This document shows positions 1-19,529 of a stretch of DNA of 20,000 bases, one piece after another. The notes under the pieces are model-generated. The model ran no database searches. It was not told the DNA's origin and saw only the letters and a list, made by a program, of their open reading frames with translations. The stretch's first letter is position 1; each line of letters begins with the position of its first letter. The DNA is from Chiloscyllium plagiosum (taxonomy: Eukaryota), in contig NC_057718.1 of the NCBI RefSeq assembly GCF_004010195.1, positions 66,729,584 to 66,749,583 on the forward strand. Reading direction: 5' to 3'. Made by a program: the position numbers and the translations under genes.

Positions 1-14
1 AGGCATGGATCAAA

Positions 15-1953
15 TTAATCCAATTCAATGGCAGGAAAAGACTGCCATACTTCCTTTTCCTCCGAAGGGGAACCAAGGGCAGGCAATGATGTTTCCTCAT
101 CATGATTAGATTAGATTAGATTAGATTAGATTACTTACAGTGTGGAAACAGGCCCTTCGGCCCAACAAGTCCACACCGACCCGCCGAAGCGCAACCCACC
201 CATACCCTTACATTTACCCCCTTTAACCTAACACTATGGGCAATTTAGCATGGCCAATTCACCTAACCCGCACATCTTTGTGACTGTGGGAGGAAACCGG
301 AGCACCCGGAGGAAACCCACGCAGACACGGGGAGAATGTGCAAACTCCACACAGTCAGTCGCCTGAGTCGGGAATTGAACCCGGGTCTCTGGCGCTGTGA
401 GGCAGCAGTGCTAACCATGTAGATTTAAATATCTAAATATGTAGATTTAAGTAAAGAAAAAGCATGTTCAGGTTGGAACCAATATTGTCAATAGAAGTTA
501 ATATCTTAGCAATAATATGCTTAACTATAGCAATACCAACAAAAAGACCAATTAAAACAATAGTACCATACAAAGACATATTAATTAATCAGTTGTACCA
601 TGAGCAAAACCCCAATCTTCACATCCCGCACTTTCATTCATTTGGTTGACAAAAGTGTGAATATTATCTATATGTCTAGTAATGTTATCAAAAAAAGCAG
701 TGACCCTCATAATGCATTTTCCTTTAATTATAACGCAAAATCCACCTTTCTTCGCAAGTATGTAATCGGTTTTGTTGGGCAAATAGGCACAATTCAGAAA
801 GCATTTCTAATTTCTATTAAGGTATCAGTTGTCTCATTTCCCAAAATTATGAGTCCACCAATGAGATAATTATGGTTTTGATGACTAATAAATCTTAAGG
901 ACTCTCCTAATGAAAGAACACTAAGAGCTGCATATGTCAATGAGTGTGTTTTACTTCTTGATATGGTCTTTGAATTCTTCCATTCTGCACAGAAGTCAGG
1001 AGAATCTGTATGTTTAAAAGGGGAATTATGATTTCATTGCCAGGTAATTGGAGAGGGAACAGAAGTTGGAAATAATGTTCCTACAGCTACGAAATGAGGA
1101 CTACTTGCTGTATTCAGGACAAGGTAGTTAGCTGCCTTATTATAACTGAAAAAAATAATATCCTTTTAATCATAGTACAAAAAAAATTTAGGCACTCTAA
1201 CATAAGCGCACCCCCATTCCTTATTCTTGTAGTAATTTGGATAGGATATTACGGATTTATTGAAGGAAGTCCATAAACAAGTAGCAGGTGGAGATAGGTA
1301 ATAACTAAAAAAGATATTATGTCATGTAAATACTTTAGTACTATTCCATTACCCCATGTTAGGATTTGGAAGGATAAAACGGGTCAGGGAGTCTCTTACT
1401 GAAGTAAACGCATAACAAATTACTTCATCCTCTCCAAAAATTTTATTATGGGTTTCTAGAAACATCCCCCCTTTGTCTCTTTTACTATGTGATCTATCTG
1501 AAAGGGAATAAGGCTTATCAGGGATGCCCATAGTACAAATGTAATCAAATTGGCACATGACAGTTTTACATGGTAAATACTATTTTCTTGTTCTAAATGG
1601 TCTTTACCATGAACTGCGAATTTTTTATGCAGTTGACCACTGCAAAAGTCTTTCTTGGAAACATTCAGTCTTTTGGCACACAAGAACTGATCCACAGTCT
1701 CTGTTTGCTCAGGATCGCACAGGCAAACTGTCCCTTCTTATGCACCAATGCTGGCAATGGCAAGTCCACACAGCAGGTCAAGTTCGACCTTTATCATCTC
1801 CCCCTTTGCAAGGTTGGAGACCGTGAAGTGTCCATTGTAATAAAGTATAAACCATTTCCTCTTTGTATGTAAGTATATACAATATACATATATTCAATTA
1901 AAATAGGCAGTAGCAAAGAAGTAACACAAACTAATCTGGTAGAGGTCACCCAT
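15..1953 (-). pseudogene. env: Endogenous retrovirus envelope glycoprotein (SU+TM), disrupted by stops, frameshifts and a SINE
   Basis: Manual minus-strand translation across frameshifts gives a hydrophobic N-terminus (~1950-1890), Cys-rich SU, KGYYFF..NKAANYL..VAVGTLFP, then PDFCAEW..LTYAALSVLSLG, QNHNYLIGGLIILGNETTDTL, ELCLFAQQNR/DYILAKKGGFCVIIKGKC (ISD + CX6C, ~714-800), FDNITRHIDNI, WGF/CSWYN, TM helix YGTIVLIGLFVGIAIV (~525-575) and a cytoplasmic tail. Confidence 0.88.
105..416 (-). mobile_element. HE1-like tRNA-derived V-SINE, slightly 5'-truncated
   Basis: Minus strand reads TGGTTAGCACTGCTGCCTCACAGC, B box GGTTCAATTCC, V-domain TGTGTGGAGTTTGCACATTCTCCCCGTGTCTGCGTGGGTTTCCTCCGGGTGCTCCGGTTTCCTCCCAC, then a (TCTAA)n tail at 105-132. 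Homologous copies at ~4123 and ~18234. Confidence 0.92.
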
Positions 1954-3036
1954 ATTCTGGTTTGAGTATTGCGGGAGTAGTATATTTGATGTCATAATTT
2001 GTGCCTTTCAGCAGGCTAGAAGCCCTAAGAGCAATTTTGAAATAAATAATTCTCAAATTGATCAAACTCACATCGCCCGTGGGGTAAATATATTGCCTAT
2101 ACTGGCAAAAAGTTCGTTCATTTAAAATTATGCACTAGCATTCCCTTCCTTCCCATTATTTTCTTATTTTATATGGAAAAACCCAGGCATGGGCCAATTA
2201 AGCAAATCTATTTTTATAAATCCAGCTTTGCTGGGATGTAATGCTCTTTGAAGTTTTGCTACTAAAAAAAACTATATTATCTAAAATTTAGATTAGTTCT
2301 GCAATATATTGTTTTTTTTTAAAAAAAATTAACATTGTGCCCAATTAAATGGCCTAATCTACAGCTTTGGTTAGTAGTAACTAGAATTAAATGTAGAAAT
2401 CTGATGATGACTTTGAGAAAAGTCGGTAATAAATATTGGCTAGAGGGCAATGCTGTCCCCAAATTATGGTAACATGACACAAAGATTTCAAACCACACTG
2501 AAATTTTTCTAATATTGAGCTAACCCTAGAATATAGATATTGGTATAGTCTTAAAATTATAAACCATCACTGTTCAGTTATAAATATCTAAGTGAACATA
2601 ATAGCTTAGCCAGACACCCCTTCTTAGATCTAACAGCCCAATCCAAAAATAAATCAAATCAACCAGTGTGTATTCTTACAAACTCCATACACAAAGCAAA
2701 GATATTTAGGCTTAGCGTCCATGTATGAAATCAAATCACTTGATAATTCAGTCAGTAGTATATTGTAGTATAAAGTGCCTGTAAATATTTCAGAAATGGA
2801 AATTTGCAAATTACTTCCAAATTTCAAAACAATATTGAAAATAATCCAAACACTAAACCTGTATGATTACAGTCAGTGAGCAACAGAGAAATCAACCTCT
2901 ACATTGTGAATTTTCACTGAACAGACAGTATCATTCACCCGTGATTTTGCACCTTACCCAGGTCTGGCATACCCATCCTTGTATTGTGTCTAAATGGGTT
3001 TTGCGAGGGACCCAATGGGATCCGAAGTTTGGGGTG

Positions 3037-3312
3037 TAAGGCTACCTGCTTGGCAGCTGAATCTCCTTGCCCTTTACTCTAGAAACAGTATCAGTTTCAT
3101 CAGGATGAGCCAGATATCTTGATAAGTGTCAGATTGATTGGACAAAATAGCATTACTATAATGCTGCCCCCTTTGAAGTTAAAAATCTTCAATGTTCCCA
3201 CAAGGCTCCAAAATCATGGATCATATTAAAAGCACAATGAAGAGTCAGTGTATATTAGTAGATTTTCCTTTTGATGCGATGAAAGCCTGTCAATTCCCAA
3301 CGTCAGCTCCGA
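3037..3312 (-). pseudogene. pol: Retroviral Pol RNase H remnant, class I (gamma/epsilon-like) ERV
   Basis: Across frameshifts: AFIASKGKSTN/IYTDS (3241-3255)/HCAFNMIHDFGALWEH*RFLTSKG ... AHPDETDTVSR/..GDSAAKQVAL. This follows the class I pattern KGKxVNIYTDSRYAFGVVHDFGxLWKxRGFLTSxG...AH...GN..AD.AAK.AA. Confidence 0.85.
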
Positions 3313-3325
3313 GGTAACATTAAAG

Positions 3326-4560
3326 ACACATTACTCCATATTGGCCACATTTCAACAGTTAAAGCAAGGGCCAGGCATTTGCCCCTGGGTTTTGATGTCT
3401 TGTTGCCAGTCACAAAGGTTAAATGTTGGGGCCTGCCTGTCCCCATTTTCAGGATCCCCTCGAGAAAGCGTTGTCCAGCAGTGGTCGTCGGGTAGGTACA
3501 TGAGGTAGGTTCCGCCCCCAGTGGGTATCCTGGTTCCAATCAACCCTATCATGGCTGGCATATGGTATTCGGAATCGTGAGGATGCTGAATATAATTTGT
3601 TTAACCTGTAACTTGCATCATGGTTCCGTCTGGTTCTGGCCATCCCATAGGAAAACCACCACTCACCTCATTTGCGACTGGAAATTCCTGGACTGGTTTG
3701 TACTGTTGGTCTGGATCATGTCAGTGACTCCAGCCAGAAAGCATTGCAAAAGCATAGGGTCAAATACAGGTAATTGAGTGTCTTGATTATTGTTCATTTG
3801 TTTGTCACTTCCATCAGACAGATAGACTCATCTTTCAGACTTGTAACACAAGCCATTCGTATTCAGGCTACTCCTAGAATTTTACTGCATTTGCATCCGT
3901 ATCACACTTGGACATACTGAGCAAATTTGGCCGTTTGGTCTTGTAGTCAGGAGCATGCTTCATTAACATTACTCTAGTCCCTAGGATGGGACCCAGTTTA
4001 GGATGGTGCAAGTCACTCATCCCCATGATATCGACTACGAAGACTGAATGCTTCATTTTCAAAAGAAGGAAAAGTTTCAACAAGTGGATGCTTTAAATTA
4101 ATGCTGGAGACAATCAGGAGATGATTCAATTCCCTACAGTGTGGAAACAGGCCCATGTCCACACCAATCCTACAAAGAATAAACCATCTAGACCCATAAT
4201 GCACCTAACACAATGGGCAATTTAGCATGGCCAATTCACCTGACATGCACATCTTTGGACTGTGGGAAGAAACCGGAGCACCTGGAGGAAACCCATACAG
4301 ACACAGGGAGAATATGCAAATTCCACACAGACAAGTCGGACCCTGGTATCGCAAGGCAGCAGTGCCAACCACATAGCCACAGGGCTCAGCATGTATACAG
4401 GAACAAAATCCCAATTCTCAAAAAGGGTCAGTGTGCCAGACATAGGCTCAGGATTCCGAGTAGAATCTAAGTTTTTTTTTATTTTACAGTATTGTTGCTT
4501 TAACTTTGTTTATATATTCCTCAATCTTAGTGGCCTTACATTGTTTTCTCATGTCATTTC
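3326..4560 (-). pseudogene. gag: ERV Gag C-terminal remnant (capsid-like region and nucleocapsid zinc knuckle), interrupted by a SINE
   Basis: A 1-nt frameshift repair at 3326-3366 gives CFNCxKCGQYGVMC, the CX2CX4(H>Q)X4C spacing. It is preceded by a ~130-codon Pro/Gly/Gln-rich frame with two stops. Capsid-like traces are weak: PRD*SNVNEA..., MACVTSLKDE, LDSTRNPEP. Confidence 0.6.
4123..4389 (-). mobile_element. HE1-like V-SINE, older and internally deleted
   Basis: Same CCTACAGTGTGGAAACAGGCCC tail, GGGCAATTTAGCATGGCCAATTCACCT block and V-domain as the copy at 105-416. Confidence 0.88.
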
Positions 4561-4587
4561 TAATTTTTTTATACACATATATATAAA

Positions 4588-4610
4588 TGAATGGGAATGG
4601 TTTTATATAG

Positions 4611-4641
<31 letters not shown>

Positions 4642-4653
4642 CATTCCCATTCA
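4588..4653. repeat. 66-bp near-perfect palindrome with (TA)n core
   Basis: TGAATGGGAATGGTTTT-(TA)n-AAAACCATTCCCATTCA; the arms are exact reverse complements. Confidence 0.9.
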
Positions 4654-4729
4654 CCTCCCCAACTTTTGGGAGTTTCATCTGCCATATATATCTATCCCTA
4701 TTCCCCCAATCATCTGCAAAATTTCTTCA

Positions 4730-5995
4730 ACTGGCCAGTAATGTAGCTTTCCATTCTTTAATTAACAATGAATTAATGCAGTCATGTTTTAAATTAGCCA
4801 TTAATCAATATGACAGGTCACTGAGAATGTGTGATGGAGTCCTGCCAATTAATATTGATTCAGGCTAATACAATTGATTTATTATAAATATTAATAATAT
4901 AAATAATAATATATAATTAATAATGAATCTTTATAATAATAAATAAAATAACCATTATCTTTAATTCAAGGTGGAAACCCAACAAGTGACTAAAACATTT
5001 TTAAAACTGTACTCTGCTGCTTTTCCCTCTTATTGCATCATTCTCTTCCCTTCTGTAGTTGATCTCCTTGCCTCTATTTTCATTTTAGCCTCATTTAACC
5101 AATTTATTAATTTATGCTTGTATAACTTTAAAGCCTGTTCCTAACTATACATTTTGGAATCTTACTTGTCATAATCTGAAAGCTAATTTTAGGCTTTGAA
5201 TTTTCAGCGAATCAAAAATTGCAAGAGGAGAATAACTAAATAGGTGATTTGTCTCATTCACTTGTCCTAGTCATTGTATCACATAGCTGTGACATTATGG
5301 AGCTTGCCAACTCCATGAAATGGGGCAGTGATGCTACAAAAGAAATAATGATTGATATACCACCCTATTCCTCGATATGTTTGGCTGACCCTAATTTCCA
5401 AAGGTTGGAATACTGGGTGACAGCAGTGCCTGCTTAAGTCAGGCAGTAGTCCTTTTTCATTATTAAGGACACCTAATGATATGGATAGAATTCAGCTTGA
5501 ATTTTGGAGAGAGCACTGAGTGGAGTGGTACCAAGCATACTTTATGCATTACTGAATGTGGATACATCTGAAGAAGGTTATGGAATATAAATAAGTTTTC
5601 AATTATTTTTGTGGACATTGGAGGATCAACAGAGCTTAGTTCTCATTGTCTTGTTTTGAGAGCGGATCTCCTCTTTGGTAATATATCAATGGTCATTTTT
5701 TAAATAATATATCTGAGTAACATCCAACATTTTATTTTCTTATATAATTTATAAATATATATTTATATATTATATATAAATTGGAAATTCATTTATTCAG
5801 TGTTTAATATTTAAAATGTAAAATGCATCCAGTTCCCAACTTTGAAATCCACTATAATTACACGGTTTTAGTCCCTTAATTTAAATCCAAAATTAGTTTT
5901 CTTAAGTAGTCCTGTCCAGTCATTGCTCAATTACAATGCTATAGGTCGTGAAATAACTGGAGCTGCCTTAAAAGGATTTGTCTATTCAAGTTAAA
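4730..5995 (-). pseudogene. Very degraded LTR-element reverse transcriptase/RNase H-like traces
   Basis: Short motifs in the expected order on the minus strand: NLNR..APVI (~5990-5950), KFKLNS, SLGVLNNEKGLLPDLSR (~5485-5435), SFVASLPHFMELASSI (~5345-5295), IKEWKATLL (~4765-4735). No YxDD recovered. Confidence 0.35.
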
Positions 5996-6545
5996 AAAAA
6001 CTACTAATGCATGAATAATGGATGAATCCAAGGACACAGATACTAACCATAAGATTTTTTTTGATGATTTATTACAATCTAATGTTGAACTGAAACTTCA
6101 ACTGTCAGTGAGGGAGGGGACTTTCTAAACAAAGCTACGGCTGGCACATCATAATCACCAATGAAACACATCAGTCTTAAAATTAAGTGGAAACAAATAA
6201 GTCTGAAACACAATATAAAGGTTATAATGTTGTTTTCCTCCGTATTCAATTTCAAATCAGCTTAATAAGGTTGGCTTTTATGTAAGGATAAAAGAGATTA
6301 GTTAGAAACTAATAGTAAGGCAGTCATGACCTGTAAAAAGAACAGGAGTTAATATTTTATTTCATAATCACTGTAAAATCCTTAATCTTAAAATTAATCA
6401 TGTTAAATTTCCATAATAGAAATCAGATTCAAAACCGTCCCGGATCTCAAGCTCCAGGGAACAAAGTACAAACATTCAATCACCAACAAACAAATGTGCA
6501 TTCAAACCGAATCACAAAAGGTTAAACTTTCTATTAGCTGTACAA

Positions 6546-6582
6546 CTTTTTTTTTCTCTCTCTCTCACACACACACACACAC
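6546..6582. repeat. Compound T/(CT)n/(CA)n microsatellite
   Basis: Direct inspection. Confidence 0.9.
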
Positions 6583-6949
6583 CGTATCTCAGTTTTTAGC
6601 TTGGGAGTTTAGTCTGATAGATCCTGGCTGTGGCATCATTGCTTAACCAAGTGTGGAAGAATTGTTACCGCTGGCCAGCCTTATCTTTTAACACATCAGG
6701 AAAGAATAATGGCCACCCTCCATATTCCATAAACAAAGAACAATCACCAAAACGAATAAAAAGCAATAAAGCAAGACAAGCCAAGCTAAACAGATGCAAC
6801 AGGTACAACAACATCAATACAGCAGATACATCAGCGAAATTATTATCTTGTCAATGTTGTTGCTGGACTATAGCAGTAAAGTTATTGAGAATTAAGTGAA
6901 ACAGCTGTACATTTCAAAGACCAATCAGTCTGTAAGGAAGAGTCTGAAA

Positions 6950-7463
6950 TGGGAGCTGCAAAAAAAATTATATAATTTTTTTTAAAAAGCGCCATTCGTC
7001 TAAATCCGAATTATCATTGTCTTCCTCATTAAAACTAAGGCCAACCATCGAATTGCGCAGTTCTGTTTGTTTACCAGTCACTTGTGACTTCTCCTTTAGT
7101 TTCTGTAATTGTTTTGCTCGAGCACTTCACTTTTAAGAACTTCAACAGACTTCATAGCACCATTTGCAGTTAATTCAATCCCCAATTTGGTGGCAGTATC
7201 CTGCCACGAGCGCAAAACTGAATCTTTGTGCCTCTCATCACAAAACTGTCGCCATAATCCAATTAACTCTTTCGTTCTCGCTCCCATGTTATGTTGCCAA
7301 ATCAATGGCTGAGATTGAGGGATGCCTAATGATATTCTTCATCAGCCAATGTTTTGTTTAGGCCTCCATACAGTTTTCTAAAGGCCTCAAACCTTTCGGG
7401 AAATTTTTCACATAATTTCACTAACGATGATGAATCATCTGTTCTATCTATGTAATTACCCAT
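6950..7463 (-). pseudogene. gag: ERV Gag N-terminal (matrix-like) region
   Basis: AAAATGG Kozak start at 7463 gives MGNYIDRTDDSSSLVKLCEKFPERFEAFRKLYGGLNKTL (Gly2 myristoylation-type start). After a frameshift it reads LIWQHNMGARTKELIGLWRQFCDERHKDSVLRSWQDTATKLGI, then acidic FNEEDNDNSDLDEW. Same strand as, and upstream of, the RNase H and env. Confidence 0.62.
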
Positions 7464-7653
7464 TTTAAAATTACTTCAGTTTTATGGCAACTAATTTAAA
7501 AAAAATTACCCACTGATCAGACTTCCACAAATGCTAATTAATTTCACAAACCTTTTTATTAAACAATAACTTTAATTATAAAATATTGTGATATTTCTTT
7601 TCTTTTTTTAAATTTTTTTTTATTATATTAATAATAACCTATAAATAAGTATC

Positions 7654-7946
7654 AGGAACCTCTTGCTCCCTGTAACTTCAAATACCAGGGGCCTCTTGTG
7701 CCTGTAACCTCAAATACCAGGGGTCTCTTGCCCCCTGTAACTTCAAATGCCAGGGGCCTCTTGCCCCCGTAACTTCAAATGCCAGGAGCCTCTTGCCCCC
7801 CGTAACCTCAAATACTAGGGGCCTCTTGCCCCCTGTAACCTCAAATAACAGGGCCTCGTGCCCCTGTTACATCAAATACCAGGGGCTTCTTGTTCCCTGT
7901 AACTTCAAATGCCAGGGATCTCTTGCCCCTATAATTTCAAATGCCA
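7654..7946. repeat. Minisatellite, 9 copies of a ~32-33 bp unit
   Basis: Consensus AGGGGCCTCTTGCCCCCTGTAACYTCAAATRCC; units start at about 7654, 7687, 7719, 7752, 7784, 7817, 7850, 7881 and 7914. Confidence 0.95.
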
Positions 7947-9499
7947 TTACCTCACACACCCATAGTAGGACTCATACACACAATACCAGCCCATAGAACT
8001 TCTGTGTTTATACGCGGAGAGCATTAAATACTATTAGTGGTGGGCAGAGTTCATAGGTTGACATTGAGGATATGAGGAACCAATGAAAAAAGTGTTGGCA
8101 TGAATTGAATAGGTAAGAGCTTTTGAAGCAATCATTTAAAATGTTTCCACAGCTAGACCTTATTTCACAACCCTTTATGAACTACCAGCCCGAGAAAAGC
8201 TAGCCTGACTCTAGTATAATAGCTGGGACTAGAAGCTATCTACTCCTGCATAGGAGCCAGTCAAGCCAGAGGATGCATGCCAATGAAAATTGGATGTGTT
8301 GGGAGTAGGGCAAGAATCCTGAAATGGGGCCCCATTCACCATTCAAAAACAAAATCCAGCCCATCATTTTCTTTTAAGTCTAACAATTGTTGAATGTTTT
8401 TGTTTACGAATTACTAACAGAAAAAGCCATTCATAAACCCAAAATTTGAATCGCAAGTATGACTGAATGTGTCAGCAGAGATGGTAGGTCTCACATGCAG
8501 CTTCATAAAAAAAATTCCAAACATTACTCAACAACTGAAAGAAAAACACAAATAAATATTAGAGAGTTTCAAAGTATTATATTTGTGCTGTAAGACTTTA
8601 ATGGGGCTAATCTAAAAAAAATGGACAGGTTTGGGTTGGGTGGGGATTAAACTCTTAAAGAGCTTCATGATATAAACCTATCTCTAACCCAACACTTCAG
8701 GCTTTAACTGAGATGGTATGGTGGATAGAAGTCTAAATTGATTCAAGGAGGCTGGTCAGTTCTTAAACACTGAGACTATGAGCCTCATGTATCAATAGGC
8801 TTTTGAATTTTATTCCTGTTGATTGTCCTAATGCACAAGCTCCAACTTGCTGCTCCACTCTGTGTTCAAACTCCCACTCGTTCGATTTGCATCTGTCTCC
8901 TCACTTGGAGAGTGTTCCACTTCCCATCTTCAACATATTTCATCCTGCAGACTCCATTGTCTGATTTTCCACACAAATGGAATCTCAACCTGATTTCTGG
9001 GAATGGAACCAATTAGTATTGAGTTAAAATTTCACAAACTTTGGGAAATATTGACCTCTGTGTTCCTGCAGATTTCGGATTCACCTGTTCCATGTGTAAA
9101 ATGGCTATTACCCAAAACCTTTATTTACATCTTATGACTTATTCAGCAAACCACTGTGAACAATAGTATTTACTTAAAAACCCTTTTTCCATAAGAAAAT
9201 GAAAAATGTTGGAAGTTACTTAACATACATGGTCTGTGAATAAAATGATCATGTGTAACCAAAATAATTGTTCTTTCTGGTCTGTCCAATTTTGTCCCAT
9301 TTAGACACACATTGCACAAATAATCTTTAAAGTATTTAGGTCTTTGTATGAGATTGTTGTCTGTTGTCTGTTAATATTGTGCCTGTTAGTTCCTGGGGTG
9401 ATGCTGCTTCTCTGCAGAATATTTTTGCCATATCATTAGTGCTGCAAATTTTGCAGCATTTATTGGAGAGCAGTTCACTTCTGAGACTGATGATAATTC

Positions 9500-10943: not shown

Positions 10944-11163
10944 CATGATTTGGAGATGCCAGTGTTGGACTGGGGTTTACAAAGTTAAAAATCACACAAC
11001 ACCAGGTTATAGTCCAACAGGTTTAATTGGAAGCACTAGCGTTCGGAGCGTTGCTCCTTCATCAAGTGATCACCTTCATCACCTGATGAAGGAGCAGCGC
11101 TCTGAAAGCTAGTGCTTCCAATTAAACCCGTTGGACTATAACCTGCTGTTGTGTGATTTTTAA
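10944..11163. mobile_element. Penelope-like element pseudo-LTRs in inverted arrangement
   Basis: 86-bp inverted arms at 10985-11070 and 11078-11163 with a 7-nt spacer and few mismatches; each arm carries a hammerhead-like core. Confidence 0.8.
11080..11114 (+). ncRNA. Minimal type I hammerhead ribozyme motif
   Basis: CAC-CTGATGA-A-GGAGC-AGC-GCTCT-GAAA-GC-TA-GTG gives stem I CAC/GTG, the CUGAUGA and GAAA boxes, stem II GGAGC/GCTCT, a palindromic AGCT stem III and a CUA cleavage triplet. Confidence 0.72.
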
Positions 11164-11442
11164 ATTTTTTTCAGGAGTCCAACTTCCTCATACAATTAAT
11201 TGACCATTAAAATTCAAATCTTGGTGGAATCTAATCAGAATCTCTTGTTTTTAAATTTTCATTTTACAGTTTTTGATCTTGAAGGTACCCCACAGTGTCT
11301 CCCTTCATCTTAGCTTCTTAAATTTAATAACTTGTTCCAAATCAATACAGGCCATATTTGATATATAATGAATATAAATTATTAGTTAATCTAGCAGTCG
11401 GGGGGAACCTAGTGTTAGTGACCATAGCATGAATGAATTTCT

Positions 11443-12744: not shown

Positions 12745-14105
12745 CCATCCATAATATGCAAAAATGTGGAACTATTTTTAGGTAGGTAGAATGGAAAAGC
12801 AAAATATTTCTTAAAAGGTGAAATAATATAAATGTTAGGATCCAGAGGAATTTGGGGGTCCTTATGTCCAAACTACAAAAAGTTATCATGCAGGAAAAAT
12901 AAGCAATTAGGAAAGAAAACTGGACATTAACTTTTATTACAAGTAGATAGGAATAGGAGATTCAAGAGCTTCTGCTGTAGTTAAATGTGACTTTGGTGAG
13001 ACCACAGCCTGTGTAATGTGTATAGATTGGTCTTTTTATTTAAGAAAGAATATAGTTGCCTTCAAAAAGAGATTGTCTAGGTTAATTCCTGCATTGAGAT
13101 CTCTTCATTGAGTAGAATGGTTCTCCATTCACTGATAGAAAGATGATTTCTTTAAAATGTATATAACTCTTATTTTCTATTTTCACTGCAGATGATGCAG
13201 AGGAGTGAGTCCTAGGCTCACATGTGTCCATCTGCTTTCTTTGTTGTTTTTAAAAAGGTTTTGCTCTTTTTCTTCATTTTTTTCCTTGTTTTAAAACAAA
13301 AGTCTTTGTGACGGGTTAATTGGCAGCTTCTCCTGGCATTCGGGGTAAGTGACAGTGGCAAATCTCCTCTAACGGTCAGAGGTGGTGGCGGAAGTGGTAG
13401 CAAGATCCTCCTAGTAATCGATGTGAGGCTTGCAGGCTGACCGAGACTTTAAGCTGTAGCTAAGTCTGGGTGCCTGCATTGGTGATTCCAAACTCCATTA
13501 TGGAGATAAGACTTAGACTTTAAAATACAAAATGAACAGTAATTCCTGTCGTTCTTAGTTACTTTTAAAAAGGACTTCCATTGAGCTCACAACTGCAATG
13601 AAATAGCTAACACACACAACATTTCTGTATGATACTATTCATTAAGCAAACTCAAAATACAGAAATGAAACAGATAAAACACCAGACATTGCACTGCAAT
13701 GTTTTTCTTACCTTCTGGCTTTTATTTCGACTGTGTTTTTTTAAATTCTGGTTTTGTCACCAAGACGGCACCAGAGAATGGTGACTTTGTAAACTTTCCA
13801 CTCCATTAATATATTCCGATACTTGAACACATAATAATAAAATCTAATTCTAATTCTTATGGGGCTGACAAAATGACTGCAAAAGGCAGTTTTCTCTGGC
13901 TGGAGTGTCATGAGTGAAAGGTTACATATTGAGGAGAAAGGGTCAACTATTTAGGATTAAAGTTAGGAAAAATCCCTTTACTCTGGAGGTTTTAAGACTT
14001 TGGAATGTTCTGCCATAGAGAGCTCTGGATGATGAGATCGATAGACATTTTTTGGGACTAAAGTAAGTGAATAATATGAGGTTAGGGCATGAAAGTGGAG
14101 TTAGA
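12745..14105 (+). mobile_element. Old CR1 LINE 3' fragment split by a ~690-bp insertion
   Basis: Degenerate CR1 ORF2 C-terminus (QRNLGVL at ~12843, TLVRP at ~12990) up to ~13170. It resumes at ~13855 with FRIKVRKNPFT..LWNVLP and is cut by the younger CR1 at ~14102. Confidence 0.75.
13172..13856 (+). mobile_element. Unclassified non-autonomous retroposon-like insertion
   Basis: Interrupts the CR1 fragment, ends in AATAAAATCTAATTCTAATTCT, and is flanked by similar AACTCTTAT / AATTCTTAT (possible TSD). Confidence 0.5.
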
Positions 14106-14424
14106 GTCATAGAGACGTATAGCATGGAAACAGACCCTTCAACCCATCCGTGTCGACCAGATATCCCAACCCAATCTAGTCCCACCTGCCAGCACCCGGC
14201 CCATATCCCTCCAAACCCTTCTTATTCATATACCCATCTAATGCCTTTTAAATGTTGCAACTGTACCAGCCTCCACCACTTCCTCTGGCAGCTCATTCCA
14301 TATACGTACCACTCTCCACGTGAAAACGTTGCCCCTCAGGTCTCTTTTATATCTTTCCCCTCTCACCCTAAACCTATGCCTCTAGTTCTGGACTCCCCCA
14401 CCCCAGGGAAAAGACTTTGTCTAT

Positions 14425-16975
14425 TTACCCTTTCACTATTCTATCTACCTGCAACTCCACTTTCAAGGAGCTATGAACCTGCAGTCCAAGGTCTCTTTCT
14501 TCAACAAAACTCCCTAGGACCTTACCATTAAGTGTATAAGTCCTGCTAAGATTTGCTTTCCCAAAATGCAGCACCTCGCATTTATTTGAATTAAACTCCA
14601 TCTGCCATCTCTCAGCCCATTGGCCCATCTGATCAAGATCCTGTTGTAATCTGAGTGCTAAGATTTGCTTTCCCAAAATGCAGCACCTCGCATTTATCTG
14701 AATTAAACTCCCATCTCTCAGCCCATTGGCCCATCTGATCAAGATCCTGTTGTAATCTGAGATAACCTTCTTCGCTGTTAACTATACCTCCTATTTTGTT
14801 GTCATCTTCAAACTTACTAACTATACCTCTTATGTTCATATCCAAATCATTTATGTAAATGACGAAATGTAGAGGACCAAGCACCGATCCTTGTGGGACT
14901 CCACTGGTCACAGGCCTCCAGTCTGAAAAACAACCCTCCACCACCACCCTCTGTCTTCTACCTTTGAGCCAGTTCTGTATCCAAATGGCTAGTTCTCCCT
15001 GTATTCCACGAGATGTAACCTTGCTAACCAGTATCCCATGGGGAATCTTGTTGAACACCTTATTGATGTCCATATAGATCACATCTACTGCTCTGCCCTC
15101 ATCAATCCTCTTTGTTATTTCTTCAAAAAACTCAATCAAGTTTGTGAGATATGATTTCCCATGCACAAAACCATGTTGATTATCCCTAATCAGTTCTTGT
15201 CTTTCCAAATACATGTACATCCTGTCCCTCAGGATTCCCTCCAACAACTTGCTCACCATCAACATCAGGCTCACTGGTCCAGTCTGTTCCCTGGCTTGTC
15301 CTTACCACCCTTCTTAAACAGTGGCACCATGTTAGCCAACCTCCAGTCTTCCGGCACCTCACCTGTAACTATCGATAATACAAGTATCTCAGGAAGAGGC
15401 CCAGCAATCACCTCCCTATCTTCCCACAGAATTGAAAGGTACACCTGATCAGGTCCTGGGGATTTATCCCCTTTTATGTGTTTCAAGATATCCAGCACTT
15501 CCTTCTCTGTAATATGGACATTTTTCAAGATGTCACCATCTATTTCCCTACATTCTATATCTTCCATGTCTTTTTCCACAGTAAATACTAATGCAAAATA
15601 CTTGTTTAGTATCTCCCCCATTTCCTGTGCCTCCACACAAAGGCCGCTTTGCTGATCTTTGAGGGGTCCTATTCTCTCCCTAGTTACCCTTTTGTCCTGA
15701 ATGTATTTGTAAAAACCCTTTGGATTCTCCTTAATTTTATTTGCCAAAGTTATCTCATGTCCCCTTTTTGCCCTCCTGATTTCTCTCTTAAGTATACTCC
15801 TATTGCCTTTATACTCTTCTAAGGATTCACTTGATCTATCCTGTTTATACCTTACATATGCTTCCTTCTTTTTCTTAACCAAAGCCTCAATTTCTTTAGT
15901 CATCCAGCATTCCCTGTACCAACCAGCCTTTCCTTTCACCCTAACAGTAATATACTTTCACTGGATTCTCGTTATCTCATTTCTGAAGGCTTCCCATTTT
16001 CCAGCCATCCCTTTACCTGTGAACATCTGCCCTCAATCAGCTTTTGAANNNNNNNNNNNNNNNNNNNNNNNNNNNNNNNNNNNNNNNNNNNNNNNNNNNN
16101 NNNNNNNNNNNNNNNNNNNNNNNNNNNNNNNNNNNNNNNNNNNNNNNNNNNNNNNNNNNNNNNNNNNNNNNNNNNNNNNNNNNNNNNNNNNNNNNNNNNN
16201 NNNNNNNNNNNNNNNNNNNNNNNNNNNNNNNNNNNNNNNNNNNNNNNNNNNNNNNNNNNNNNNNNNNNNNNNNNNNNNNNNNNNNNNNNNNNNNNNNNNN
16301 NNNNNNNNNNNNNNNNNNNNNNNNNNNNNNNNNNNNNNNNNNNNNNNNNNNNNNNNNNNNNNNNNNNNNNNNNNNNNNNNNNNNNNNNNNNNNNNNNNNN
16401 NNNNNNNNNNNNNNNNNNNNNNNNNNNNNNNNNNNNNNNNNNNNNNNNNNNNGTAGGTACATCCACATACTGAATCAGAATACTTTCTTGTACACATTTA
16501 ACAAATTCCTCTCCATCTAAACCCTTAACACTATGGCAGTCCCAGTCTATGTTTGGAAAGTTAAAATCCCCTACCATAACCACCCTATTATTCTTACAGA
16601 TAGCTGAGATCTCCTTACAAATTTGTTTCTCAATTTCCCTCTGACTATTAGGGGGTCTATAATACAGTCCCAAAAAGGTGATCATCCCTTTCTTATTTCT
16701 CAGTTCTACCCAAATACTTTCCCTGGATGTATTTCCAGTAATATCCTCCCTGAGTACAGTTGTAATGCTATCCCTTATCAAAAATGCCACTCCCCCTCCT
16801 CTCTTGCCTCCCTTTCTATCCTTCCTGTAGCATTTGTATCCTGGAACATTAAGCTGCCAGTCCTGCCCATCCCTGAGCCATGGTATGATATCCCAGTCCC
16901 ATGTTCCTAACCTTGCCCTGAGTTCATCTCCCTTTCCTGTTAGGCCCCTGGCATTGAAATAAATACGGTTTAGTT
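14425..16975 (-). pseudogene. CR1 ORF2: AP endonuclease and reverse transcriptase, frameshifted
   Basis: IYFNARGL, GLYYRPPNS, VMVGDFNFPNIDW, KSPGPDQVY, PEDWRLANMVPLFKKG, NQHGFVHGKS, GVPQGSVLGP, FEDD (mutated FADD), FNSNKCEVLHFG. Confidence 0.95.
16049..16452. other. Assembly gap (404 N)
   Basis: Run of N inside CR1 ORF2. Confidence 1.
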
Positions 16976-17063
16976 TATTAGTCCTACCTGTCCCTGCCTG
17001 CCCTGACTGTTTGACTCACTTCTGTTCTCAATTATACTAGTCTCAGATTGATCTCTTTCCTCA

Positions 17064-18083
17064 CTATCTCCCTGGGTCCCAACCCCTCACCTTACTGAAA
17101 CGGTTGTCTATACCTCTGATTAGAGAGTCCCCCAACACAATTGATTTCTTTGAACCCAGCGTACCCCTCAGTGCATCCCGAGCAGCTCTAGCAAATCTCC
17201 CTGCCAGTATATTAGTCCCCTTCCAATTTTGGTGTAATCCGTCTTTCTTGTACAGGTCACTTCTACCCCAAAAGAGATTCCAATGATCCAAAAATGTGAA
17301 TCGTCCTCCCATACACCAGCTCCTCAGCCATGCATGCCTATTCCTTCCCTCACTAGCTCGTAGCACCGGGAGTAATCCAGATATTACTACTCTCAAAGAC
17401 CTCCTTTTTAAATTCCTGCCTAACTCTATGTAATCTCCCTTCAAAATCTCAACCATTTCCCTTCCTATGTCTTTGGTTCCAATGTGGACAATGACCTCTT
17501 GGTGGTCCCTCTCCCCCTTGAGAACATTCTGCACCCTCTCTGAGACATCCTTGATTCTGGCACTAGGGAAGCAACATACCATTCTGATTTTTCGCTGCTG
17601 GCCACAGAAACTTTTGTCTATACCTCTGATTAGGGAGTCCCCCAACACAATCGATTTCTTTGAACCTAACGTACCCCTCAGTGCATTATAGGCAGTCTCA
17701 ATACCAGAAACATGACTGTTTGTGCTATGTTCCCCTGTGAATTGATCACCCCCTACATTTTCCAAAACAGCATATTTGTTTGAAATGGGGATAGCCACAG
17801 AAGACGCCTGCATTAACTGCCTACCTCTCTTACCTTTCCTGGAGTTAACCCATCTATGTGGGTATAACTACGATATTTCCCCCTTGATATATCTGCCATC
17901 CATCATGTTCCGTTGCTGTTGCAAATTCCTCATTGCTTCTAATTGTCTCTCCAACTGATCCATTTGATCTGATAGGATTCGCAACCAACAGCATTTATTG
18001 CAGATATAATCCACAGTAACCTGTACACTCTCCTTAAACCCCCTCATTTGACAAGAAGCACATATCACTCTACTAAAGGCCAT
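17064..18083 (-). pseudogene. CR1 ORF1: C2C2 zinc finger, leucine zipper and SGNH/GDSL esterase domain, frameshifted near 17860
   Basis: MAFSRVICASC..YICNKC..LSDQMDQLERQLEAM; VLGDSLIRG, CCFPSARIKDV, VHIGTKD, DGLH. Confidence 0.92.
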
Positions 18084-18233
18084 TTTTGCTCCTTCACAAT
18101 CTACAGACCCAGAAAATAACACCATCTTATTCCTCCACAAAACACTGCTCCAGGTTAAATTAATAGTTATGGCTTATATTTTAAGTTTAATCAAGAGACA
18201 TATCTCAAAAAACATATAATCAAGAGTTTTTAC

Positions 18234-18516
18234 ATTAGATTAGATTCCCTACAGTACAGAAACAGGCCCTTCAGCCCAACAAGTCCACACCAACCCTCTG
18301 AAGACTAACCTAATCCCTACTAATGCACCTGTCACTATGGGCAATTTAGCATGGCCAATTCACCTGACCTGCACATGTTTCGACTGTGGGAGGAAACACA
18401 CACACACACAGGGAGAATGTGCAAACTCCACGCAGTCAGTTGCCCGAGGCTGGAATTGAACCCAGGTCTCTGGTGCCATGAGGCAGCAGTGCTAACCACT
18501 GAGCCACTGTGCCTCC
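18234..18516 (-). mobile_element. HE1-like V-SINE
   Basis: Intact head GGCACAGTGGCTCAGTGGTTAGCACTGCTGCCTC (A box), B box GGTTCAATTCC, V-domain and (TCTAA)n tail. Confidence 0.92.
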
Positions 18517-18694: not shown

Positions 18695-19529
18695 ATGACT
18701 AAAGGGAAGGGAGCCCACAGCGCTCAGCAAGCAGGAACCCCTCCCCCACCCTCTCCAGCTGCAACAGAGGCGTCCACAGCCACCCCGGGGGACTTACCTA
18801 AAGTGACAAGCCTTGCAGAAATGATTTCCAAGCTGGATTCGAAGATAGATGCCTTTATTGCAGAATCCAGAAATAGTTGGGACTCGCTCTCGGCCGCGCT
18901 GCAGAAGCATGACCGAGAAATCCAAGAAATTGAGCGCCGAGTCGGAGGGGCGGAGTTAAAGGCCGCGACCTCCGAAAATACCACTCAATCGGCCGTGGAT
19001 CAGGTCCGGACTCTCGAGAAGCGAGTCCGGACCTTGGAATCGAGGTCGTCGAAAAAATATTCGTTTGCTGGGCCTTCCCGAACGGGAAGAGGAAGGCCAG
19101 CTTACAGCATTCCTGGAGCAGTGGCTGCCACAGCTTTTAAATCTGGAAGCTGGATCAGGCCAGGTAAGGGTGGAATGGGCCTACTGGGTCGCAATACGCG
19201 GGCCTGGCTCAAACCAGCGCCCACGCCCGGTCCTGTTCCAGCTGCAGAGCTACAAGGAGAGGCAGATACTTCTAGAAGTCTCTAGAAATCTCGGAAAAGA
19301 CCCCCAAGCTATGATCTATAAAGGATCCAAGATCATGCTATTTCAGGACTTTTCCCCGGCTCTGGTTCGAAAGAGGAAGGCATTCGACGAGATGAAGAAG
19401 CGTTTAAGGGACTTACATGTTCAGTACTCCTTACGCTACCCAGCGATGTTACGCTTTAACCATGAAGGATCTGTATATAACTTTGGATCACCAGAAAAGG
19501 CGAAGGAATTCTTGGACTCTCTTAGATAA
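18695..19529 (+). pseudogene. L1 ORF1p (Transposase_22 family; coiled coil, RRM, CTD) with one frameshift near 19037
   Basis: Coiled coil ending RVRTLE, then in another frame NRGRRKNIRLLGLPERE, RPRPVLF, KIMLFQDFSPALVRKRKAF, YSLRYPAMLRF, F.SPEKAKEFL. Confidence 0.93.

Follow-up and report, generated by a model that had tools for sequence, protein, structure and literature searches.

The origin of glycoprotein subunit 2 (GP2) of filoviruses from a retroviral envelope glycoprotein (Env) is a real evolutionary question, and a link to cartilaginous fishes was published in 2024 by Nino Barreat and Katzourakis (PMC11521997). In the passages of that paper available here, GP2-related ectodomains in a retroviral context are reported from Chiloscyllium, Scyliorhinus, Amblyraja and Leucoraja (the table adds Rhincodon), and are placed as sister to the GP2 of Ebola-, Cueva-, Marburg- and Dianlovirus with a posterior of 0.83. 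Tapajós virus is grouped there with lizard elements (posterior 1). Furthermore, the accessible part of Chen et al. (bioRxiv 2021.11.23.469661) describes gamma-type Envs of anamniotes, among them those of six cartilaginous fishes, a CXnC subtype of such Envs, and skate and bamboo-shark endogenous retroviruses (ERVs) similar to the F-env of chelonid herpesvirus 5. In this work, a stretch of 20,000 nucleotides from Chiloscyllium plagiosum (contig NC_057718.1, positions 66,729,584 to 66,749,583; hereafter the window) was analysed, which carries the remains of an env gene on its minus strand. It is very probable that they represent a dead env of a non-autonomous class I ERV of cartilaginous fishes with a gamma/epsilon-type reverse transcriptase (RT), from a lineage grouping with filovirus GP2 and with the glycoprotein (GP) of Tapajós virus and the Mabuya Mab2 Env, and that this subfamily spread as env-dead, RT-less copies. 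The locus itself is a badly decayed copy of a known lineage and adds no function.

The decayed env gene and its intact relatives

The initial annotation, made from the letters of the window, had read positions 15 to 1010 as the transmembrane subunit (TM) of a shark ERV Env. All strings quoted there were located in the six-frame translation of the minus strand, and the reading is borne out by this translation, by the intact Env of the skate Leucoraja, which aligns to the window at E 3e-34, and by copies with pol domains and long terminal repeats (LTRs). The Env likeness of the stretch is, on these alignments, above chance. What had gone unstated is that the strings are spread over shifted frames and that the tail is interrupted. 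The segment SPFKH, followed directly by TDSPDFCAEW…NHNYLIGGLIILGNETTDTL, is a single open frame in which the T after SPFKH stands at 1009; ELCLFAQQNR belongs to a second frame, DYILAKKGGFCVIIKGKC…FDNITRHIDNI to a third, and the membrane anchor to the second again (Table 1). The stop codon at 17-15 is separated from the anchor by an insertion for which the name short interspersed nuclear element (SINE) would be our reading of the repeat itself; related repeats are present at 4123-4338 and 18230-18516. The surface subunit (SU) probably starts near 1797, and a few hundred bases that other copies have are deleted from it at 1155-1165. When the 70-amino-acid piece 591-800 alone was compared with the PDB, GP2 of CAS virus was the best match (E 0.0028) and chains of filovirus GP2 came next. 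The frame with the fusion loop (797-1033), searched by itself, gave no GP2 in the PDB, chance matches only, and Pfam returned no informative match for either piece of the window's own TM frames.

The anatomy of the protein is better seen in its database relatives. The Env of Leucoraja has 561 amino acids and is 45% identical over 90% of the query, and further relatives are found in Pristiophorus, Mobula, Heterodontus and Scyliorhinus. In skate, sawshark, manta and horn shark, the annotation lists long open Env frames of this lineage (P0002, P0008, P0004 and P0003) as genes of the host. In the Leucoraja Env, R-V-R-R-R stands directly before the same TM start, and thus the degenerate cleavage position proposed for the window is confirmed. 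At this place in the window's genome, a dibasic pair was present in 11 of 43 stretches and the full R-x-K/R-R in none of the 43.

The intact relatives also show an internal, cysteine-flanked loop and no N-terminal fusion peptide, in line with the initial annotation. The spacing between its cysteines, which may form a disulfide, is 44 residues in intact relatives, with two relatives at 40. The corresponding figure is 45 for Ebola, Marburg, Lloviu and Měnglà viruses, 38 for Tapajós virus and Mab2, and 36 for P0124, a protein resembling the Env of avian sarcoma and leukosis virus (ASLV). The window copy has lost the second loop cysteine, which is present in 34 of 48 aligned stretches. The immunosuppressive domain (ISD) lies between the heptad repeats HR1 and HR2 and is split by a frame break in the window. 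A third cysteine after CX6C was found in none of 50 stretches (49 distinct places, as L066 and L102 overlap), and the intact relatives are likewise without it; neither of the two full-length relatives checked has CXXC in SU. According to the sections of PMC9967133 consulted, the third cysteine makes the bond between SU and TM, the internal loop is of the alpharetrovirus type, and alpharetroviral as well as filoviral proteins also lack CXXC. Since both the third cysteine and CXXC are lacking, the association of SU and TM was probably non-covalent. Judged on these motifs, the Env is a variant fitting the CXnC subtype of Chen et al. and not a canonical gamma-type member; it appears ASLV- and filovirus-like in its loop but with a probably non-covalent SU-TM association.

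The two N-glycosylation sequons that the initial annotation described as common to this TM and Ebola GP2 are present, but they are not diagnostic. Among 130 fetched proteins with a locatable motif, the HR1 sequon occurs in 116 and both sequons in 63, so that the pair was rejected as a sign of special kinship with GP2, being common among the fetched Envs.

By homology with known fusion proteins, the ancestral Env would have been a class I fusion trimer cleaved by a furin-type protease into SU and TM. Its TM would have begun with a short polar segment, inserted a disulfide-clamped internal loop into the target membrane and folded HR1 and HR2 into a six-helix bundle, as homologous filovirus GP2 and ASLV TM do, with SU and TM probably held together non-covalently.

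Some further observations concern related Envs. P0211 of Scyliorhinus torazame bears the annotation of an LDL-receptor class A domain protein 3 isoform, although an Env of this lineage, lacking part of TM, makes up its C-terminal two thirds; either the gene model or the transcript is thus chimeric. In P0001, P0211 and P0212, the SU core is preceded by an additional N-terminal domain rich in cysteine, which is followed by R-V-R-R in P0212. P0073, an Env that is otherwise distant, has a similar domain (E 0.0067 for the SU-only match to P0001). A squamate Env clade (P0033, P0045, P0070 and P0109), which lacks the third cysteine, also has an internal loop between cysteines; in P0070 this loop has 49 residues. 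One of the trees placed the clade with the ASLV-like group (97/90).

The element and its spread

The env remains belong to a defective element of the order LTR-gag-pol-env-LTR, whose remnants follow each other in this order in the window. The 3' LTR falls a short way beyond the edge of the window, some 35-666 bases ahead of position 1 (region L021, about 6918-7549), and similarity to other copies ends at 7947. No 5' LTR match was obtained for the window copy and no RT match anywhere in the window element. Integrase is represented by matches of E 5e-14 and 5e-12 to the frame of related region L097, including a further piece at 3090-2947. Pfam gave nothing informative on the three minus frames of 1900-8102.

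Related copies are numerous in the genome, and the counts are lower bounds because a subset of candidates was scored: at least 79 DNA matches (40 of 458 candidates scored) and at least 150 protein matches (150 of 778 and 150 of 480). Twenty more distant related regions were picked for long open frames, and 68 of their 83 open reading frames (ORFs) were submitted to Pfam. Retrovirus-type pol domains stand upstream of the same env in seven of these regions (L097, L098, L099, L100, L101, L103 and L106), and two further regions have a bare RT match, possibly from a long interspersed nuclear element (LINE). A TM frame matching Pfam Ebola-like_HR1-HR2 at E<=0.01 occurs in 14 of the 20, one of them over the curated cut-off. 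RT, RNase H, integrase and LTR pairs all occur among related copies, as does a primer site. In L032 and L102 this site follows the 5' LTR directly, and its sequence is complementary to tRNA-His genes (called at two of the three fetched places). In L101, the one element tested, RT matched those of murine leukaemia virus (MLV; E 9e-41), foamy virus (7e-23) and HIV-2 (4e-14). By these matches the RT is closest to gamma/epsilon retroviruses and of class I. The pol domains upstream of env, the MLV-like RT and the tRNA-His primer site mark this as a class I ERV and not an endogenised filovirus. The same genome holds other env families, with at least 78 TLV_coat matches (78 of 1041 candidates scored), which fall in unrelated clades of the TM tree.

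The decay of the subfamily can be followed among its copies. When the 30 loci nearest to the window copy were compared, both tested TM frame breaks were seen in 15 and only one of them in six, while six are in frame and three differ. The match across 4123-4338, where a second SINE-like insertion lies, is continuous in copies C1a, C1b, C2, C37, C50a and C8, and broken in L093, L102 and L109. Because the frame breaks are graded among loci and this insertion is carried only by close copies, the lesions arose stepwise and were then copied onward. The flanks of the copies differ beyond the LTR. In copy C2, LTRs of about 600 bases at both ends are 90.9% alike, and the Kimura two-parameter distances of the LTR pairs in C2, L097 and L102 (0.075, 0.075 and 0.106) would correspond to about 37-53 million years if a rate of 1e-9 per site and year is assumed.

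We propose, as an addition of this analysis, that the subfamily kept spreading after the death of env. Having lost RT, broken env and gained a SINE, it would still have been copied, as the shared lesions observed suggest; the likeliest route would be intracellular retrotransposition by Gag and Pol of related ERVs, with priming by tRNA-His. Two points count against this picture. RT was matched in none of 11 close-copy regions, yet the fetched regions may not span each copy's full length, and therefore the loss of RT is not proven for all copies. Moreover, some copies may be segmental duplicates, since identical scores occur at paired places. The family would in this way be an example, from a genome that evolves slowly, of how copies with a dead env and no RT spread step by step.

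Relationship to filovirus glycoproteins

The initial annotation had suggested that this TM may belong to an aquatic retroviral env lineage close to the source of filovirus-type GP2. An unbroken TM frame of the family (L093) does score filovirus GP first in the PDB (E 3e-13), before syncytin-2 (2e-7), CAS virus GP2 (4e-5), ASLV (0.015) and MLV (0.04), but this ranking is biased because the PDB set contains no fish ERV Env. On equal columns, the core identity to filovirus GP2 is 30-35%, whereas several other ERV Envs reach up to 38.5%, and the mammalian filoviruses rank 22, 66, 75, 81 and 84 of 169. In the full search, Tapajós GP (E 3e-16) stood above Marburg GP (5e-12).

Three trees were calculated: FastTree with 185 rows (seven fragments or false hits removed by hand and two by a length filter), IQ-TREE with 49 rows hand-picked of 183 and 152 columns, and a core tree with 43 hand-picked rows of 183 and 90 columns, from which two more were lost for lack of a motif match. 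ASLV is represented by look-alikes such as P0124 (E 1e-20 to ASLV TM). The lineage lies outside the ordinary fish-type class I Envs in all three trees, so the nesting among them that would have spoken against the initial annotation was not seen. In FastTree, both window frames nest in the family, inside a cartilaginous-fish clade. This clade is supported at 92/87 by IQ-TREE, and the family joins database proteins of Leucoraja, Heterodontus and Mobula at 100/99 there and at 87/91 in the core tree. In IQ-TREE the clade joins the mammalian filoviruses at 87/41 (SH-aLRT 41), and the group that adds Tapajós and Mab2 has 95/89.

Several results weigh against the grouping with filovirus GP2. The deep branching is unstable: in FastTree the clade joins Tapajós and Mab2 (0.82), away from Ebola and Marburg, and in the core tree the clade, the filoviruses, Tapajós/Mab2, ASLV-like and squamate Envs form an open fork (71/84). 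Approximately unbiased (AU) tests reject none of four alternatives, namely a link to Tapajós/Mab2 (p 0.325), a link to ASLV-like Envs (0.186), all filoviruses together with Tapajós included (0.153) and nesting with ordinary fish-type Envs (p-AU 0.071). The trees are without rows of reptarenavirus, tarsier, MLV and exogenous avian leukosis virus; for reptarenavirus this is because a search for its glycoprotein precursor from the squamate-type Env P0070 gave 11 proteins, the named ones all squamate. The AlphaFold models, proposed as a check in the initial annotation, have a mean confidence (pLDDT) of 51.5 and 43.9, too poor to test the fold, and the Foldseek searches with a low-confidence model were uninformative, with chelonid herpesvirus 5 F-env as top row. 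In the ESM Atlas, the skate Env matched TLV_coat clusters (0.95) and a filovirus GP cluster (0.89), which is a lead only, and a scan of IMG/VR with the Env alignment gave 45 pattern matches, none confirmed. Among the fetched proteins, P0163 (ALT19595.1) is labelled as Zaire ebolavirus GP, clusters with Marburg GP at 90% and matches Marburg in its GP1 part; it is probably a chimeric construct or wrongly labelled.

The SU gives a second line of comparison. By searching 104 SUs with an SU-only profile of the clade, Mab2 was found as the best non-member (40.6 bits, E 1e-12), the next scores being 13.9, from a protein that is itself a clade member by FastTree, and 8.2. The Mab2 SU reached 43.5 bits against at most 6.1 in 469 scored shuffles. 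The reciprocal profile of Tapajós and Mab2 SUs listed clade members first (E 1e-6, 2e-5 and 5e-4). The match of SU to Tapajós alone is weak (4.6-4.8 bits; hhalign probability 72%). On the other hand, with a profile of the GP1 head, clade members came no higher than an E-value of 0.76 and family members did not exceed 0 bits, and hhalign of the shark SU end to the conserved GP1 head strand was not significant (probability 4.9%, E 0.008). By these profiles the SU matches Mab2 and Tapajós GP and not Ebola-type GP1, which is a small addition of this work. The link of shark SU to Mab2 and Tapajós was not found stated in the literature searched, although supplements and paywalled papers outside that search may contain it. 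In the table of PMC11521997, Mab2 and Tapajós GP are matched over two stretches, of which one is N-terminal, so that a link between these two is already implicit in print. The preprint of that paper makes no mention of GP1, a surface subunit, a fusion loop, a fusion peptide or CX6CC. A proximal domain common to SU and GP1 is described in two structural-modelling preprints (2021.11.05.467493 and 2023.10.07.561363).

Two placements within the wider group deserve weight. Either as its specific sister or as its donor, the lineage may be tied to the GP2 found in Ebola, Marburg, Lloviu and Měnglà viruses, which is plausible though short of probable. The best IQ-TREE tree and the published posterior favour it, as do the PDB ranking of the L093 TM and a loop of 44 residues, nearer to the filoviral 45 than those of Tapajós/Mab2 or P0124. 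However, the SH-aLRT of this branch is low and neither FastTree nor the core tree recovers it, the PDB ranking is biased and the identity ranks are 22-84, the viruses have CX6CC where the family lacks the third cysteine, and no sequence match joins SU to GP1. Alternatively, the closest kin could be Mab2 and Tapajós GP, with the whole Env shared, the third cysteine absent and Ebola-type GP2 one step further out; this placement is about as plausible as the first. It agrees with both directions of the SU search, with the absence of a third cysteine from both proteins, with the rank of Tapajós above Marburg, with FastTree and the AU test, which does not reject it, and with the table of PMC11521997, where Tapajós is the best reciprocal hit for 4 of the 14 rows from cartilaginous fishes. 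It lies, however, 5.1 log-likelihood units below the best tree, the direct SU match to Tapajós is weak, and the shared SU may be a retained ancestral state from which GP1 departed by faster evolution.

A wider hypothesis, which we consider unlikely as it stands, is that the fish ERVs, Mab2 and Tapajós are one ancient whole-Env lineage with an internal loop and non-covalent SU-TM association. The filoviruses bearing GP2 would then have taken the entire spike, possibly in a single capture, with GP1 as a fast-evolved SU; a single filovirus clade with Tapajós is not rejected by the AU test on TM. If so, no retroviral models for how the receptor-binding subunit of filoviruses arose would be closer than intact shark and skate Envs. 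That the window env was co-opted by the host, as a secreted SU or a syncytin-like protein, is very improbable: open Env frames exist in other cartilaginous fishes, but the SU and TM of the window have stops, frame breaks, a deletion and a SINE, and the longest open env frame is below 100 codons. An endogenised filovirus or reptarenavirus glycoprotein gene, suggested by the best PDB matches of the window piece (reptarenavirus and filovirus GP2), is refuted by the LTR-gag-pol-env context, with env between integrase remnants and LTR, hundreds of candidate copies, relatives with RT, RNase H, integrase and primer site, and no GP1 homology.

The preferred reading is thus a dead class I env of a lineage that groups with filovirus GP2 and Tapajós/Mab2. 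The interpretation of the initial annotation is thus supported in part. Of the idea of closeness to the source of GP2, the wider grouping has 95/89 in one tree. The specific sister link is weakly supported, the identity to GP2 is no higher than to several other ERV Envs, and the missing cysteine of CX6CC together with an SU like that of Mab2/Tapajós speaks against a direct source; the evolutionary idea itself is not new, being in print in PMC11521997. What is added here, modestly, is the SU link and the absence of the third cysteine, and both make it less and not more likely that the lineage was the source of Ebola-type GP2. Since the whole-protein comparison (SU and missing intersubunit cysteine) ties the sharks to Mab2 and Tapajós, the published placement as sister to Ebola and Marburg is less secure than ectodomain trees suggest.

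Features of the window and comparison with known systems

The coordinates of the element are collected in Table 1.

Table 1. Parts of the defective ERV recognised in the window, in order of position.
Feature	Position	Strand	Basis
Whole defective LTR element, as far as inside the window	1..7947	-	comparison with ten other copies
env: last part of cytoplasmic tail, with stop codon	15..107	-	translation; same tail in related regions L093, L096
SINE-like insertion ending in (GATTA)n, within the env tail of this copy (approximate limits)	108..443		other copies join 444 directly to about 107
env TM: membrane anchor (approximate limits) and start of cytoplasmic tail; stop and frame break at its start	444..600	-	translation, protein matches
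env TM: remaining ISD, CX6C loop without third cysteine, second sequon, HR2, membrane-proximal region	591..770	-	translation; PDB match
env TM: end of HR1 and first half of ISD, shifted frame (approximate limits)	765..813	-	six-frame translation, protein matches
env: degenerate SU/TM cleavage position, TM start (about 1009), internal fusion loop, first part of HR1 with sequon	797..1033	-	six-frame translation
env: SU remnants with stops and frame breaks	1010..1797	-	protein matches 1794-1621, 1576-1319, 1489-1274, 1162-803
Integrase C-terminal remnant overlapping the env start	1590..2015	-	match to L097 frame (with MLVIN_C match)
Short RNase H remnant	3159..3233	-	protein match
Older SINE-like insertion inside the element	4123..4338		carried by close copies, absent from more distant ones
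gag remnant	6885..7077	-	E 2e-14 to L103 frame preceding its zinc knuckle; DNA match 7467-6886
33-bp tandem array (8.9 copies), 5' leader	7659..7946		longer in copies C1b, C37

Beyond the element, a decayed LINE occupies 14100-18170 on the minus strand, with a match to RT at 14636-15301 (E 2.7e-22) and, at 17067-17867, an ORF1 frame resembling esterases (Lipase_GDSL_2, OSK); we take it to be of CR1/L2 type. An assembly gap of N lies at about 16048-16473. Two overlapping plus-strand frames of 196 and 189 amino acids at 18695-19529, the first coiled-coil-like, gave only weak coiled-coil matches in Pfam and are presumably L1-type ORF1-like. A 90-bp inverted repeat at 10981-11167 (92% complementary, 7-base spacer) probably belongs to a small hairpin-type family, because similar pieces occur near copies C10 and C50b. 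Among the related regions, a tblastn match of the HR2 piece to a LINE RT in L003 was rejected as chance.

The nearest described systems are the fish ERVs of PMC11521997. In the passages available, they share with the present family the retroviral context, the Ebola-like HR1-HR2, best viral matches to filoviruses, Tapajós and CAS virus, the same position as in our IQ-TREE tree and Leucoraja as a host. The difference is that only the ectodomain is treated there; these passages do not deal with the fusion loop, the lack of a third cysteine, the SU link or copies that spread after env had died. Tapajós GP (YP_010798909) and the Mabuya Mab2 Env (ATY46612) likewise have an internal loop between cysteines, CXnC without a third cysteine, and SU homology detectable at both ends of SU. 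They differ in their loop of 38 residues against 40-44 in the family, in CX7C against CX6C, and in an overall identity to the skate Env of 21-22%. The GP2 of Ebola, Marburg, Lloviu and Měnglà viruses has a near-equal loop ending in hydrophobic-hydrophobic-Cys, the HR1 sequon, the ISD and the second sequon, but it has CX6CC, core identity stays at 30-35%, and GP1 gives no sequence match to the family SU. ASLV-type Envs share the internal cysteine-flanked loop and, in the sections of PMC9967133 used here, the lack of CXXC in SU, whereas the look-alike P0124 keeps CX6CC, has 24% core identity and falls in a separate clade. The anamniote gamma-type Envs of Chen et al. include a subtype that has CXnC in common with the family.

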